Assembly: GCF_056746865.1 (NCBI RefSeq)
Contig: NZ_CM163382.1
Reading direction: 5' to 3' (one strand)
Length of the DNA: 64,000 nt
The notes below the pieces were generated by a model. That model saw nothing but the letters and a program-made list of their open reading frames with translations. It made no database searches and was not told where the DNA came from. How positions within the stretch are numbered: position 1 is the first letter of the stretch; every line of letters starts with the position of its first letter. Position numbers and translations under genes: made by a program. Positions 12,044 through 55,708 of this stretch are shown here, in pieces.

Positions 12044-12123
12044 TATCCACCGGCATGGCTGCGCGCCGTGCCGGTTCCTTCTTCCTTGCCGTCACTCTTT
12101 GAAGACGGATTCTGGAGTTTACG

Positions 12124-13584
12124 ATGACTACTATTGTTGACAGCAATCTGCCGGTTGCCCGCCCGTCATGGGATCATTCTCGTCTGGAATCACGCATTGT
12201 GCATCTCGGTTGCGGGGCGTTTCACCGCGCGCACCAGGCGCTGTATACCCATCATCTGCTGGAAAGCACCGACAGCGACTGGGGCATCTGCGAAGTTAAC
12301 CTGATGCCAGGCAACGACCGCGTGCTGATCGAAAACCTGAAAAAACAGCAACTGCTGTACACCGTAGCGGAAAAAGGCGCAGAGAGCACCGAGCTGAAAA
12401 TTATCGGTTCGATGAAAGAAGCGCTGCATCCGGAAATCGATGGCTGCGAAGGTATTCTCAACGCGATGGCGCGTCCGCAAACGGCGATTGTCTCTCTAAC
12501 GGTCACGGAAAAAGGCTACTGCGCTGATGCGGCAAGCGGTCAACTGGATCTCAATAACCCGCTGATCAAGCACGATCTGGAAAACCCGACTGCGCCGAAG
12601 TCCGCGATTGGTTACATCGTCGAAGCGTTGCGTCTGCGTCGTGAAAAAGGGTTGAAAGCGTTTACGGTGATGTCCTGCGATAACGTGCGTGAAAACGGTC
12701 ATGTGGCGAAGGTCGCGGTACTGGGGCTGGCTCAGGCGCGTGACCCGCAGCTGGCGGCATGGATTGAAGAAAATGTCACCTTCCCGTGCACCATGGTTGA
12801 CCGCATCGTTCCGGCGGCGACGCCAGAAACCTTACAGGAAATTGCTGACCAGCTGGGTGTTTACGACCCGTGCGCCATTGCCTGCGAACCGTTCCGTCAG
12901 TGGGTGATTGAAGATAACTTCGTTAATGGTCGCCCGGATTGGGATAAAGTGGGCGCACAGTTCGTTGCAGACGTTGTGCCGTTCGAAATGATGAAGCTGC
13001 GTATGCTGAACGGCAGCCACTCTTTTCTGGCGTACCTCGGTTACCTCGGCGGCTATGAAACCATTGCCGACACCGTGACTAACCCGGCTTATCGCAAAGC
13101 GGCCTTTGCCCTGATGATGCAGGAACAAGCGCCAACGCTGTCGATGCCGGAAGGTACAGACCTGAACGCCTATGCGACGCTGCTGATCGAGCGTTTCAGC
13201 AACCCGTCTCTGCGTCACCGTACCTGGCAGATTGCGATGGACGGCAGCCAGAAGTTACCGCAGCGTCTGCTGGACCCGGTGCGTCTGCACCTGCAAAACG
13301 GCGGCAGCTGGCGTCACCTGGCGCTGGGCGTGGCTGGCTGGATGCGTTACACCCAGGGCGTGGATGAGCAGGGTAATGCCATTGACGTGGTCGACCCGAT
13401 GCTGGCGGAGTTCCAGAAGATCAACGCGCAGTATCAGGGCGCAGACCGCGTGAAAGCGCTGCTGGGCCTGAGCGGTATTTTTGCCGATGATCTGCCGCAG
13501 AATGCCGACTTTGTTGGCGCAGTGACGGCGGCATATCAGCAGCTGTGCGAACGCGGTGCGCGCGAGTGTGTGGCTGCGCTGTAA
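12124..13584 (+). CDS. uxuB: D-mannonate oxidoreductase (fructuronate reductase) UxuB
   Basis: 486-aa mannitol-dehydrogenase-family protein immediately downstream of uxuA. Confidence 0.9.
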   Translation: MTTIVDSNLPVARPSWDHSRLESRIVHLGCGAFHRAHQALYTHHLLESTDSDWGICEVNLMPGNDRVLIENLKKQQLLYTVAEKGAESTELKIIGSMKEALHPEIDGCEGILNAMARPQTAIVSLTVTEKGYCADAASGQLDLNNPLIKHDLENPTAPKSAIGYIVEALRLRREKGLKAFTVMSCDNVRENGHVAKVAVLGLAQARDPQLAAWIEENVTFPCTMVDRIVPAATPETLQEIADQLGVYDPCAIACEPFRQWVIEDNFVNGRPDWDKVGAQFVADVVPFEMMKLRMLNGSHSFLAYLGYLGGYETIADTVTNPAYRKAAFALMMQEQAPTLSMPEGTDLNAYATLLIERFSNPSLRHRTWQIAMDGSQKLPQRLLDPVRLHLQNGGSWRHLALGVAGWMRYTQGVDEQGNAIDVVDPMLAEFQKINAQYQGADRVKALLGLSGIFADDLPQNADFVGAVTAAYQQLCERGARECVAAL

Positions 13585-13608
13585 CTAACTGATTACCCTA
13601 CAGACTTA

Positions 13609-13653
13609 CTGGTCAATCAAACTGATATTTGGTTGACCAGTTTTCGTTTTTTT
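13609..13653 (+). terminator. Rho-independent terminator of uxuAB
   Basis: CTGGTCAATCAAA / TTTGGTTGACCAG stem (13 bp, one mismatch) with a 6-nt loop, followed by TTTTCGTTTTTTTG. Confidence 0.6.
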
Positions 13654-13714
13654 GCCCACCTGTACGTGCCAACTTCCAGTGCTAATGGTATAGTTTGAGA
13701 TTAACGGGGGCCGT

Positions 13715-13775
13715 AAAATTGCCCGTTGTAGGCCGGATAAGGCGTTCACGCCGCATCCGGCAAAAATTTGATTAA
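13715..13775. repeat. REP element
   Basis: TGTAGGCCGGATAAGGCGTTCACGCCGCATCCGGCA canonical REP-type palindrome upstream of uxuR. Confidence 0.6.
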
Positions 13776-13798
13776 CCGCACCTAACGGACACAACACC

Positions 13799-14572
13799 AT
13801 GAAATCTGCCACCTCTGCGCAAAGACCTTACCAGGAAGTCGGGGCGATGATCCGCGATCTGATCATAAAGACGCCGTACAATCCTGGCGAACGGCTGCCG
13901 CCGGAGCGTGAAATTGCAGAAATGCTTGATGTCACGCGGACGGTGGTACGTGAAGCGCTGATCATGCTGGAGATCAAAGGGCTGGTGGAAGTACGCCGGG
14001 GTGCCGGTATCTATGTTCTTGATAACTCAGGCAGCCAGAACACAGACAGTCCGGATGCCAACGTCTGCAACGATGCCGGTCCTTTTGAGCTGTTACAGGC
14101 GCGGCAGTTATTGGAGAGCAACATCGCCGAGTTTGCCGCTTTGCAGGCTACCCGCGAAGATATCGTCAAAATGCGTCAGGCATTGCAACTGGAAGAGCGT
14201 GAACTGGCTTCCAGTGCGCCGGGCAGCAGCGAAAGCGGTGACATGCAGTTCCATCTCGCTATTGCCGAAGCAACGCATAACAGCATGCTGGTGGAGCTGT
14301 TCCGTCAGTCCTGGCAGTGGCGGGAAAACAATCCAATGTGGATCCAGTTGCACAGCCATCTGGATGACAGCCTGTATCGCAAAGAGTGGTTGGGCGATCA
14401 CAAACAGATCCTCGCCGCGTTAATCAAAAAAGATGCCCGAGCGGCGAAGCTGGCAATGTGGCAGCATCTGGAAAACGTTAAGCAACGTCTGCTGGAATTC
14501 TCGAACGTTGACGATATTTATTTTGATGGCTATCTGTTTGATTCATGGCCGCTGGATAAAGTCGACGCCTGA
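13799..14572 (+). CDS. uxuR: GntR/FadR-family transcriptional repressor UxuR
   Basis: 257 aa with N-terminal GntR-type winged HTH (...RLPPEREIAEMLDVTRTVVREALIMLEIKGLVEVRRGAGIYV) and FCD-type C-domain; follows uxuAB. Confidence 0.9.
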   Translation: MKSATSAQRPYQEVGAMIRDLIIKTPYNPGERLPPEREIAEMLDVTRTVVREALIMLEIKGLVEVRRGAGIYVLDNSGSQNTDSPDANVCNDAGPFELLQARQLLESNIAEFAALQATREDIVKMRQALQLEERELASSAPGSSESGDMQFHLAIAEATHNSMLVELFRQSWQWRENNPMWIQLHSHLDDSLYRKEWLGDHKQILAALIKKDARAAKLAMWQHLENVKQRLLEFSNVDDIYFDGYLFDSWPLDKVDA

Positions 14573-31588: not shown

Positions 31589-34500
31589 ATGTTGTGGGGT
31601 TTTGTTTTTGTATCTTTTATCTCTAAGGAGCTTGCTTTGGGTCAATCAGAATACATTTCATGGGTAAAATGTACTTCCTGGCTAAGTAACTTTGTGAATC
31701 TTAGAGGGTTGAGACAACCGGATGGCCGTCCTCTTTATGAATATCATGCAACCAATGATGAATATACCCAATTAACGCAGCTACTCCGTGCAGTCGGTCA
31801 ATCACAATCTAATATATGTAATAGGGACTTTGCTGCCTGTTTTGTTCTTTTTTGCTCTGAGTGGTACCGCAGGGATTATGAACGGCAATGCGGATGGACG
31901 TGGGACCCTATATATAAAAAAATAGGGATTTCATTCACCGCCACAGAGCTTGGTACTATCGTACCGAAAGGGATGGAAGATTACTGGCTGCGCCCAATTC
32001 GATTTTATGAATCTGAACGACGCAATTTTCTCGGAACATTATTCAGTGAAGGTGGTTTACCTTTCCGGCTACTCAAAGAATCAGACAGTCGCTTTCTGGC
32101 TGTTTTCTCCAGGATCCTTGGACAATATGAGCAAGCAAAGCAGTCAGGTTTTTCTGCCCTTTCGCTGGCAAGAGCTGTCATAGAAAAATCAGCGCTGCCA
32201 ACTGTTTTTAGCGAAGATACCTCTGTAGAACTTATCAGTCATATGGCTGATAACCTCAATTCCTTAGTACTTACTCACAACCTAATAAATCACAAAGAAC
32301 CAGTACAACAGCTTGAGAAGGTTCACCCTACCTGGCGAAGCGAGTTTCCAATACCGTTAGATGATGAAACAGGAACGCATTTTTTGAATGGACTGCTATG
32401 CGCAGCCTCTGTAGAGGCTAAGCCTCGACTACAAAAAAATAAGAGTACGCGTTGCCAATTCTATTGGTCAGAAAAGCATCCAGATGAGCTTAGGGTGATA
32501 GTATCTCTTCCGGACGAAGTTTCCTTTCCTGTAACAAGCGAGCCGTCAACTACGCGCTTTGAACTTGCCATTTGTGAAGATGGTGAGGAAGTCTCTGGCC
32601 TTGGGCCAGCCTATGCTTCTCTGGAAAACAGACAGGCAACAGTTCGATTACGTAAAAGCGAAGTGAGATTTGGCAGGCAAAATCCATCGGCAGGTTTGTC
32701 GTTAGTGGCTCGTGCTGGAGGGATGATTGTTGGGAGCATTAAACTTGATGACAGTGAAATTGCCATTGGTGAGGTGCCGTTAACCTTCATCGTTGATGCA
32801 GATCAATGGCTGTTACAGGGACAGGCTTCTTGCAGTGTGCGAAGCAGCGATGTTCTGATTGTGCTCCCTCGGGATAATAGCAATGTTGCTGGTTTTGATG
32901 GCCAATCGAGGGCAGTAAACGTATTAGGACTAAAAGCACTACCTGTGAAGGGATGTCAGGACGTTACAGTTACAGCAAATGAAACTTATCGGATTCGCAC
33001 CGGAAGAGAACAAATCAGCATCGGAAGGTTTGCTCTAAATGGAAAGCGTGCAAGCTGGGTTTGTCATCCAGATGAAACATTTATTGGTGTACCAAAAGTC
33101 ATTTCTACACTACCGGATATTCAAAGCATTGATGTAACGCGTTACCTGAGCGGAATTTCAATTGAGCAATGTCATATACAAGAGATGCTGGGGGCTCAAT
33201 ATCTTTCTATCCGTAATAGTAAGAATGAAACGCTCTTGCGTCGCAAAATCGGTATTTTGCCTGCTGATTTCAGTATTGAGATAAAAGGTGGAATACACGC
33301 AAATGAAGGCACTATCGTAATCACCACACAGCATCCTTGTGTAGCAAAACTTAAAGATAAAACATTGGAGGCTACACGTAAGCGTACTGAGGGGCGAACA
33401 GAGATACAACTCAAAGCGGAAGGGGTACCTCCGGCATTTATTACATTACAAGTTCTGCCTAATTTGGCGGCTGACCCCATCGATATTGAGTTACCTTTTC
33501 CCGCTAAAGGCTGTCTCGCTCTTGATGTAAACGGACGTCCTCTGGATAAAAACATTACGCTGCATGATCTGCTGGGTTCCAGAGCGTTTCTGTTCTCCAG
33601 AAATGGCGAGCCGACAAGATATACATTGCAGTTGCATTTGCGCTCCGTTAGTGGATTACAGGCATGGCACGAATGGTGTTATACGGCGTTGAGCGATCGT
33701 CCTGTTGAATTGAATCTCTATAGTCTGCGCGAACATATTGAGAACCTGATTTCACTTGAGGCAGGTATTGACCAGGTTGTTGAGATGCGTATTACGGGGG
33801 CGGGTGTGGTCATGGCCTGGCAAATTCGTCGCTATAAATACAGTCTGCGCTATGATTATGAAAAAGAACTATTACTCAGCCAGTCAGTGAACCATCGTGC
33901 TGGACAGATTCCTTCCCCCGTTATCATGCTGTTAAGTGAACCCGAGAGGAAATCCATCCCCTTAGCATCAAGAATGAGCGAGGGAGTGCCTGTCGGTGAA
34001 TATGAGTTGAGCTCAATCGTTAACAAAAATGGACCGTGGTTGGTTGTCCCTAAACCGGGTGAAGAGATGGCTTTTCGTCCCTGCTTCATTCGTGGCGAAT
34101 CTTCGTTACCGGTAGAAGAAAGCAACATCCGCTCATTGCAGAAAGCGACCCAGCTTTTTAATCCACAGGCAGAAGTTAATACCATCACACTGGTTCTCGG
34201 ACAGATGGCTAACGATCCTGCCCATTCCGGCTGGCAATTTATGCGTAGCCTGTACGATCAATTTGGTTATTTACCACTGGCAACCTTTGAAGTATGGCGT
34301 GCACTGGTGCAGCATCCGCAGGCATTGGCAATGTCGCTCTTCAAATTTGAAATGTCAGCAGAGTACCTGAGTCGTATTGAGAATGAGTTCCCTATTCTAT
34401 GGGAGTTTTTCCCCATCTTTGAGATCAAAGCGGCATCTGAGCGTTTCAAATTGTTCCTGAGCCAAAAAGGTGCACCGGAGGAAACCCAGAAATTACTGGT

Positions 34501-53557: not shown

Positions 53558-55708
53558 TTAGTGGTGCGAAGAGATCTTCACGCCGCCTTCCGGGATTGGA
53601 ACGTACGGTGTTTCTTTGTCAGTACGTTTGTCGCTGTTACGCACCTTCAGCCAGGTTTTGAAACCGTAGAAGATGATGCTGTACACCACAATCAGGAACA
53701 GAATACTCAGGCCCGCGTTGGTGTAGTTGTTCACAACAATGTGGTTCATGTTGGCAATCTGCTGCGCCGTCAGGTCAGTACCGTTAGCAATCTTCTCTTT
53801 GTACTGGCTTGCCATGTAGAAGAAGCCTTCCATCTGTGGGTTGGTGCTGAACAGTTTCAGACCCAGTGCCCAGGTGGTGCAGATAAGCAGCCATACAGCC
53901 GGAACAACGGTAACCCAGATGTATTGGGTGCGCTTCATCTTAATCAGCACAACGGTGCCCAGTACCAGCGCCACGGCTGCCAGCATCTGGTTGGAGATAC
54001 CGAACAGCGGCCACAGGCTCTTAACGCCGCCCAGCGGATCGACCACGCCCTGATACAGCAGGTAGCCCCACAGACCCACACAGCCCGCAGTACCGATGAT
54101 ACCGGCAACCAGAGAGTCGGTTTTTTTCAGGAACGGGATGAAGTTACCCAGCAGGTCTTGCAGCATAAAGCGGCCAGAACGGGTACCCGCATCCAGCGCG
54201 GTCAGGATGAACAGGGCTTCGAACAGAATACCGAAGTGATACCAGAAGCCCATGTCAGCCATCGGCAGCACTTTGTGGAACACATGAGCGATACCTACCG
54301 CCAGCGTCGGCGCACCACCTGCACGGTTCAGGACAGAAGGCTCACCAATGTCTTTCGCGGTTTGCAGGATCTGCTCTGGCGAAATCACGAAGCCCCAGGA
54401 GCTGACGGTTGCCGCCGCGTGTGCGGTAACGTCTTTCAGCTGCGCCATGATGATCGGCGCGTTCTCGCCACCCATTTCATGCAGGTTAGGCATGGTGATG
54501 CCAAGGCCAGCAGGCGGGGTATTCATCGCGAAGTAAAGACCCGGTTCGATGATGGACGCAGCAACCAGCGCCATAATCGCCACGAAGGACTCCATCAGCA
54601 TTGCGCCGTAGCCAATGAAACGCGCGTCGGTTTCATTAGCCAGCAGTTTCGGCGTCGTACCGGAAGAGATCAGCGCGTGGAAGCCAGATACCGCACCACA
54701 GGCGATGGTGATGAACAGGAACGGGAACAGAGCGCCTTTCCACAGCGGGCCAGTACCGTCAATGTACTGGGTCATCGCAGGCATTTTCAGTTCCGGGTTC
54801 AGCACCACGATACCCAGCGCCAGGCCGACGATAACGCCGATTTTCAGGAAGGTTGCCAGATAGTCGCGCGGTGCGAGGATCAGCCACACCGGCAGCAGTG
54901 CGGAAACAAACGCATAGCCAATCAGCGCGAAGGTAATGGTGGTGTCTTTAAAGGTCAGTGCCGGACCCCAGTACGGATCGTGAGCAATCACGCCACCGAA
55001 GTAGATAGAGGCAACCAGCAGCACGATACCAATGACAGAGACTTCACCCACACGCCCCGGACGGATAAAGCGCATGTAGATACCCATAAACAGCGCAATC
55101 GGTACGGTTGAGCAAACGGTGAAAACACCCCACGGGCTTTCGGCCAGGGCTTTAACCACAATCAGCGCCAGGACGGCAAGGATGATGATCATGATTAAGA
55201 AACAGCCAAACAGCGCGATAGTCCCCGGTACTGGTCCCATCTCTTCTTTGATCATCTCACCGAGAGATGCGCCGTTACGGCGAGAGGAGATAAACAGCAC
55301 CATAAAGTCCTGTACCGCACCGGCCAGTACTACCCCCGCCAGCAGCCACAGCGTGCCAGGTAGGTAGCCCATCTGCGCGGCGAGAACCGGACCAACCAGC
55401 GGACCAGCACCGGCGATAGCGGCGAAGTGGTGACCAAACAACACGTAACGGTTGGTCGGAACGTAGTTCAGACCGTCGTTGTTAATAACCGCAGGCGTCG
55501 CGCGCGTGGGGTCGAGTTTCATCACCTTCTGGGCGATGTACAAACTGTAGTAGCGATACGCCACCAGATACACCGACACAGAGGCGACCACGATCCACAG
55601 GGCGCTGACGTGCTCCCCCCGACGTAATGCAACTACCGCGAGGCAGAATGCACCGATGATTCCGAGAATCACCCAGGGTATGTGCTTGAATAGTTTTTTC
55701 GTATCCAT
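53558..55708 (-). CDS. btsT: CstA-family pyruvate:H+ symporter BtsT (YjiY)
   Basis: 716 aa from MDTKKLFKHIPWVILGIIGAF; large polytopic CstA-family membrane protein. Confidence 0.88.
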   Translation of the reverse strand: MDTKKLFKHIPWVILGIIGAFCLAVVALRRGEHVSALWIVVASVSVYLVAYRYYSLYIAQKVMKLDPTRATPAVINNDGLNYVPTNRYVLFGHHFAAIAGAGPLVGPVLAAQMGYLPGTLWLLAGVVLAGAVQDFMVLFISSRRNGASLGEMIKEEMGPVPGTIALFGCFLIMIIILAVLALIVVKALAESPWGVFTVCSTVPIALFMGIYMRFIRPGRVGEVSVIGIVLLVASIYFGGVIAHDPYWGPALTFKDTTITFALIGYAFVSALLPVWLILAPRDYLATFLKIGVIVGLALGIVVLNPELKMPAMTQYIDGTGPLWKGALFPFLFITIACGAVSGFHALISSGTTPKLLANETDARFIGYGAMLMESFVAIMALVAASIIEPGLYFAMNTPPAGLGITMPNLHEMGGENAPIIMAQLKDVTAHAAATVSSWGFVISPEQILQTAKDIGEPSVLNRAGGAPTLAVGIAHVFHKVLPMADMGFWYHFGILFEALFILTALDAGTRSGRFMLQDLLGNFIPFLKKTDSLVAGIIGTAGCVGLWGYLLYQGVVDPLGGVKSLWPLFGISNQMLAAVALVLGTVVLIKMKRTQYIWVTVVPAVWLLICTTWALGLKLFSTNPQMEGFFYMASQYKEKIANGTDLTAQQIANMNHIVVNNYTNAGLSILFLIVVYSIIFYGFKTWLKVRNSDKRTDKETPYVPIPEGGVKISSHH

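Follow-up and report, generated by a model that had tools for sequence, protein, structure and literature searches.

A UxuR site upstream of the E. coli uxuR gene is already listed in comparative-genomics catalogues. Both UxuR and ExuR, GntR/FadR-family regulators of the hexuronate regulon, have been reported to be autorepressors (PMC9369180). Genomic SELEX with UxuR revealed a binding peak in the gntP/uxuA spacer; the text of that report gives a single site in this spacer and a figure legend gives two sites in the operon (PMC5934670). The UxuR consensus site AAATTGGTATACCAATTT was used in a biosensor and attributed there to the E. coli uxuR promoter (PMC8092373). In the paralogous exuT-exuR spacer of E. 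coli K-12, taken here for comparison (8560-8630 of L082, NC_000913.3), the box AAAGTGGTATAACAAATA abuts a TATAGT hexamer. A literature search for precedents of an operator overlapping a terminator returned nothing relevant, and no description of the uxuR operator as belonging to the uxuB terminator turned up in the literature searched, which is weak evidence of absence.

The element described here lies in the E. coli gntP-uxuA-uxuB-uxuR locus, which is core DNA (gntP on the minus strand, yjiC also in order), within a stretch of 64,000 nt referred to below as the window. Over positions 13300-14100 the sequence agrees fully (100% identity) with that of K-12 MG1655 and of many other strains. From the open reading frames and the K-12 annotation, uxuB occupies 12124-13584 of the plus strand, with its TAA stop codon at 13582-13584, and uxuR follows on the same strand at 13799-14572, with the ATG at 13799. 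Of 5,426 complete E. coli genomes, 5,396 have a single copy of the 116 bp between the uxuB stop and the uxuR -10 hexamer, with an identity of at least 99% in 4,767 of these 5,396 and no annotation there; a repeated or mobile element was rejected on the single-copy count. Elsewhere in the window, the K-12 offset of the uxu region misplaces the lgoR/lgoD spacer (about 55060-55225), so collinearity with K-12 is lost across the variable restriction-system region. The uxuA-uxuB spacer contains a GC-rich 11-bp hairpin (12049-12075) with no T-run after it, which may be an intercistronic stabiliser rather than a terminator.

An earlier note on this DNA had pointed to a strong hairpin with a T-run after uxuB, about 150 bp upstream of uxuR, and both statements proved accurate. 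The plus-strand stem is formed by a 5′ arm, ACTGGTCAATCAAA (13608-13621), and a 3′ arm, TTTGGTTGACCAGT (13628-13641), joined by the 6-nt loop CTGATA (13622-13627); it begins 24 nt past the uxuB TAA and ends 158 nt ahead of the uxuR ATG. Five of its 14 pairs are G-C and one is G-U. The T-run TTTTCGTTTTTTT (13641-13653), which we read as a terminator U-tract, shares its first T with the last base of the stem, and the tail directly after the stem is UUUUCGUUUUUUU, so that the stem-loop and U-tract of an intrinsic terminator are both found. Folded alone, the hairpin RNA reaches -18.8 kcal/mol (z = -6.5), and none of 200 shuffled sequences folded equally well; folding within an 86-nt context gave -20.9 kcal/mol with z = -3.35. 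On the minus strand the fold is weaker, an A.C mismatch replaces the G-U pair and no T-run follows, which makes the hairpin signal directional for uxuB transcripts. Assignment of the hairpin to a known RNA family was rejected, the only Rfam result being a sub-threshold REP-type match downstream. There are no entries for uxuA, uxuB or uxuR in the 3′-end supplements of Adams 2021 and TERMITe 2025, nor in the SMRT-Cappable-seq supplement of full-length transcripts, probably because the operon was silent in those media.

To follow the hairpin across species we used a UxuR protein scan with one genome per species, which gave 80 loci. The hairpin alignment comprised 18 of them, from 6 Escherichia, 9 Citrobacter and 3 Klebsiella (oxytoca group), all with uxuB ending immediately upstream and with an equivalent hairpin. 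Standard pairs are formed in 99.2% of the pair cells over the 18 species, vs. 17-50% when the partners are slid by 1-3 columns. Double-sided compensation was observed at two pairs: the outer pair, U-A in Escherichia, is G-C in Citrobacter and Klebsiella, and an A-U pair has become C-G in K. michiganensis. Four further pairs carry one-sided changes with pairing kept through G-U, and in the Klebsiella 5′ arm three consecutive bases have changed from TCA to CTG and still pair with an unchanged 3′ arm, as C-G, U-G and G-U. Half of the columns of the 5′ arm vary between genera, most changes keeping the pairing by compensation or wobble. Within the 3′ arm, TTTGGTTGACC is nearly invariant in the 18 species, its sole change being the compensated T-to-G in K. 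michiganensis. Within Escherichia the loop sequence differs in all six lineages, and the arms are constant save for one base in Escherichia sp. E1V33; this species and Citrobacter sp. On2M each have a single mismatch, located at the base of the stem. As G-U pairs are meaningful only in the plus-strand RNA, selection at the RNA level is indicated, through a covariation signal of about six substitution events in three related genera. Together, the pattern indicates that the hairpin is under selection as RNA, and it stands where a uxuAB terminator would be expected. Of the 12 nt that follow the stem, 8-11 are T in Escherichia and Citrobacter and 5-6 in Klebsiella, a poor U-tract. Taken separately, we regard the terminator assignment as probable, judging from the fold and the comparative data.

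The right arm of the hairpin contains a UxuR/ExuR-type operator box, TATTTGGTTGACCAGTTT (13626-13643), identified by motif, position weight matrix (PWM) and conservation. It matches the consensus at 13 of 18 positions, and its 3′ flank consists of the first three Ts of the T-run; in E. coli, T accounts for 10 of the 12 nt that follow the box core. The earlier note had read TGGT-N2-ACCA-like half-site pairs in both arms of the hairpin, and this holds for the right arm, where the core TGGTTGACCA (13630-13639) is exact, and not fully for the left, where TGGTCAATCA (13610-13619) has ATCA for ACCA. With a PWM built from 19 training boxes, none of them from the uxuB hairpin, which themselves score 15.5-25.2 bits, the right-arm box reached 21.4 bits and ranked second among 63,983 window positions. 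This value falls between those of the two boxes of the gntP/uxuA spacer, AAATTGGTCAACCATTGT at 10573-10590 (20.3 bits) and GATGTGGTTAACCAATTT at 10679-10696 (21.6 bits), and the 10-bp core of the right-arm box is the reverse complement of the gntP/uxuA box core at 10577-10586. The exact motif TGGTNNACCA occurs four times in the 64-kb window vs. 0.95 expected; three of the four occurrences are in the uxu locus, where the two besides that of the hairpin belong to the gntP/uxuA control region. The fourth, TGGTGTACCA at 33085-33094, is within coding DNA (yjiT by K-12 mapping), scores 11.4 bits and has probably arisen by chance. A CRP-like site of the gntP/uxuA spacer, TGCGATGAATGTCACA, with one mismatch to the consensus half-sites, abuts the box at 10573-10590 (together 10573-10606). 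A CRP site between the uxuR box and its promoter was rejected; the best match there has three mismatches, vs. one in the gntP/uxuA spacer. The 18-mer AAATTGGTATACCAATTT is absent from the window and the native uxuR box differs from it at five positions, so that the biosensor sequence represents the consensus and not the native site. A full-text literature search for the box sequence returned unrelated primers only.

The box is conserved well beyond the hairpin. At 54 of the 80 species-level loci the 350 nt before uxuR contain one GGTYRACC and no more, and 35 of these 54 do not have uxuB immediately upstream, among them those of Salmonella, Morganella, Providencia, Photorhabdus and Photobacterium. 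At none of these 35 is the box paired with an upstream arm and followed by a T-run; only the 18 uxuB-adjacent loci pair it with a closely adjacent 5′ arm as a terminator-like hairpin. In Salmonella arizonae and S. diarizonae, where the upstream gene is divergent and no hairpin is formed, the box has been retained at an unchanged distance from the -10. At two loci (L021 and L022) uxuB is closed by a GC-rich hairpin of its own, and the box that follows is unpaired; in Photorhabdus the upstream gene has its own separate terminator, after which the box follows. As the box is kept across these contexts and the hairpin is found only next to uxuB, we conclude that the box is older than the hairpin and independent of it. 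T-rich tracts like TTTnnnGTTTTT follow the box even where no hairpin is formed (loci L016/L017, L021 and L055-L066, with Salmonella and Photorhabdus among them), so the T-run may predate the terminator. The same two Salmonella (L016/L017) carry a second, perfectly palindromic box, TTATTGGTAAACCAATAA, at about -233 from uxuR, toward the divergent gene. Considered by itself, the operator appears highly probable on this comparative evidence.

The only good sigma-70 match in the uxuB-uxuR spacer is GTGCCA-17-TATAGT on the plus strand (13666-13694), a predicted uxuR promoter with its -10 at 13689-13694 and a TG at 13686-13687 (extended -10). In vitro, SELEX with RNA polymerase holoenzyme gave a peak in the uxuB>uxuR spacer, with the same two hexamers as the best promoter (PMC3946193), and TGnTATAGT is conserved in Escherichia, Citrobacter, Klebsiella, Salmonella, Cedecea, Edwardsiella and Pantoea. 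If transcription starts near 13701, about 7 nt past the -10 and placed from it, the box would be centred at about -66.5; provided that the TATAGT promoter is used, such a position would be unusual for simple steric repression. One possibility, which we infer from this position, is that repression from about -66 would work through interference with alpha-subunit or upstream-element contacts. Escherichia and Klebsiella both have offsets of 58-60 between box core and -10, Salmonella diarizonae has 58 and Pantoea allii 57. All nine Citrobacter share an offset of 39. In Cedecea, Morganella and Providencia the offset is 17-18, and the box falls within the core promoter. These offset classes step by about 20-21 bp, that is, by whole helical turns. 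In Photorhabdus and Photobacterium the TTGACC of the box serves as the -35, and in Photorhabdus the T-rich tract forms the promoter spacer. For E. coli such use of TTGACC was rejected, there being no -10-like hexamer at 16-18 nt; the layout is that of Photorhabdus and Photobacterium.

Downstream of the promoter, and outside the terminator and operator, the uxuR leader contains a REP-type repeat on the plus strand (13722-13776), with a partial match to the REP-derived Rfam family naRNA4 at 13731-13776 (40 bits, below the gathering score). The spacers of most Citrobacter and those of Klebsiella lack it. A separate REP-like insert is found at three Citrobacter loci (L010, L012 and L014), and the other Citrobacter and Klebsiella have none; in other Escherichia lineages the uxuR leader is about 55 bp longer.

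Dual use of the segment, as the earlier note had suggested, is the best reading by comparative inference, with pairing kept in 18 species and a conserved box at 54 of 80 loci. We put at roughly 0.68 the probability that the element is an intrinsic uxuAB terminator in which the 3′ arm and the first Ts double as the autoregulatory UxuR/ExuR operator of uxuR. Polymerases that have started at the uxuA promoter would transcribe 13608-13641 into a 14-bp RNA hairpin followed by a U-tract, which would end the uxuAB transcript a few dozen nucleotides past uxuB and leave uxuR as a separate unit. In double-stranded DNA the 3′ arm and first Ts (13626-13643) would form a palindromic box upstream of the uxuR promoter, to which UxuR, and probably ExuR, would bind and so repress uxuR. 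The 5′ arm would have no regulatory role of its own and would serve to pair with the operator. In the lineage of Escherichia, Citrobacter and Klebsiella, a complementary arm may have arisen beside an existing operator with its T-rich flank, and a terminator would have resulted.

The overlap may amount to functional coupling of operator and terminator, beyond economy, but we think such coupling rather unlikely. On this reading, the release point would lie downstream of the operator, so each polymerase transcribing uxuAB would cross the box before terminating; in the induced operon, it might sweep UxuR off the operator of uxuR, and in the repressed state bound UxuR might be a roadblock in support of a terminator that is rather AU-rich. 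According to the same idea, an older operator with its T-rich promoter spacer would have gained a complementary arm and so become the terminator; this module of box and T-tract would still serve as -35 and spacer in Photorhabdus and Photobacterium, and the operator would have moved outward on the same helical face, through offsets of about 18, 39 and 59 bp.

Another explanation would be that the hairpin is a terminator only, and that its box-like 3′ arm is a relic which has ceased to regulate uxuR in E. coli. About 58 bp separate the box from the -10 downstream of it, clear of the core promoter, and the text of the SELEX report names the gntP/uxuA site alone (PMC5934670). Yet TTTGGTTGACC hardly changes in 18 species next to a loop saturated with changes, the box keeps the strength of a full site, and its distance from the -10 stays within 57-60 in Escherichia, Klebsiella, Salmonella and Pantoea allii. 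The Salmonella box is moreover conserved without any hairpin, and uxuR autorepression has been reported (PMC9369180). A box that has lost its role thus seems to us quite improbable, and retention of the operator within the terminator is the preferred reading.

No better does the proposal fare that the hairpin is a protective or processing structure at the 3′ end of the uxuAB mRNA, termination being Rho-dependent or placed further downstream. It could account for an AU-rich stem with five G-C pairs of 14, for a stem that is conserved in Klebsiella although the tails there have few Us, and for T-rich tracts that follow the box without a hairpin in Salmonella and Photorhabdus and are hence not specific to termination. 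Against it stand the Escherichia and Citrobacter hairpins, in which a stem followed by 8-11 T in 12 nt is the canonical layout of an intrinsic terminator, and the uxuR promoter, which lies within 50 bp and leaves little room for another stop signal. We judge this proposal unlikely and infer that termination would occur at the hairpin itself.

The earlier note had further seen tandem GntR-type palindromes in the hairpin, and it is this claim that the data do not bear out. The left arm (13606-13623) matches the consensus at 9 of 18 positions and departs from the regulon motif by its ATCA, found in both Escherichia and Citrobacter, a change without cost to the RNA as it gives a G-U pair. In E. 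coli it scores 12.2 bits, below the weakest training site (15.5 of 15.5-25.2 bits), and in the orthologous regions it does not behave as a conserved motif: the score is 8.6 bits in Citrobacter and -1.4 to 0.6 bits in Klebsiella, and pairing is retained throughout. As the box is palindromic, any arm complementary to it will resemble it, and the second "site" is accounted for as a by-product of the hairpin. From the sequence comparison, then, the element is best described as one operator and its pairing partner, not tandem operators; weak auxiliary binding of the left arm may occur in E. coli itself. In another spacer, about 330 nt upstream of uxuR in Edwardsiella (L024 and L025), two full-strength boxes, TTTGGTCAACCAATTT and TTTGGTTGACCAATAA, stand inverted about 29 nt apart (about 40 bp by another count) with no T-run after them, and they seem to be a true pair of operators, probably serving another gene. 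That both arms of the uxuB hairpin are operators for UxuR/ExuR dimers 20 bp apart, with hairpin potential as a side effect of two inverted palindromes, is very unlikely: the left arm is the seventh best PWM match in 64 kb, the centre-to-centre spacing is about two helical turns and paired boxes do exist in the regulon, as in Edwardsiella, but its score is under all 19 training sites and decays while pairing is preserved, partly by G-U pairs that are meaningless to a DNA-binding protein, and no second box at -20 was found in the taxa that have the box but no upstream uxuB.

Both components are elements of textbook kinds in a well-studied regulon, and with uxuR autorepression already known, the understanding of the system is unchanged. 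The segment provides a worked example of dual constraint, with protein binding acting on one arm, as predicted, and RNA pairing on both, and the asymmetric pattern of substitutions reveals which constraint acts where. It also calls for caution in motif searches, as a palindromic operator incorporated into a hairpin will invariably give the appearance of a second one, and in the editing or reuse of the uxuB terminator or the uxuR promoter region, as neither can be separated without touching the other.

Compared with intrinsic terminators of E. coli, the uxuB hairpin has the stable stem-loop and U-rich tract, past the stop codon and on the coding strand only, and its pairing is kept by compensatory and wobble substitutions. 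It differs in its stem, which is long and AU-rich where theirs are short and GC-rich, and in a frozen 3′ arm that leaves nearly all adjustment to the 5′ arm, probably because the 3′ arm is also the predicted protein-binding site. With the UxuR/ExuR operators of the hexuronate regulon the right arm shares the TGGT-N2-ACCA core with T-rich flanks, and a place upstream of a regulon gene that is conserved in orthologous regions. Unlike them, it stands about 58 bp upstream of the -10, embedded in the terminator of the preceding operon; in Cedecea, Morganella and Photorhabdus, and at the paralogous exuR promoter, the box overlaps the core promoter, and at E. coli uxuR it does not. The closest parallel is the exuT-exuR junction of E. 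coli K-12, where a structural gene is likewise followed by the gene of its GntR-family autorepressor, and terminator, operator and a -10 with the same TATAGT hexamer as at uxuR come in the same order. There, however, the GC-rich terminator, GCCGCCTTCTCAGGCGGC followed by TTTTT, is separate from the ExuR-type box, whereas at uxuB-uxuR the two are fused. As the exuT-exuR junction keeps its elements apart, the fusion at uxuB-uxuR appears to be a lineage-specific compaction and not a requirement.
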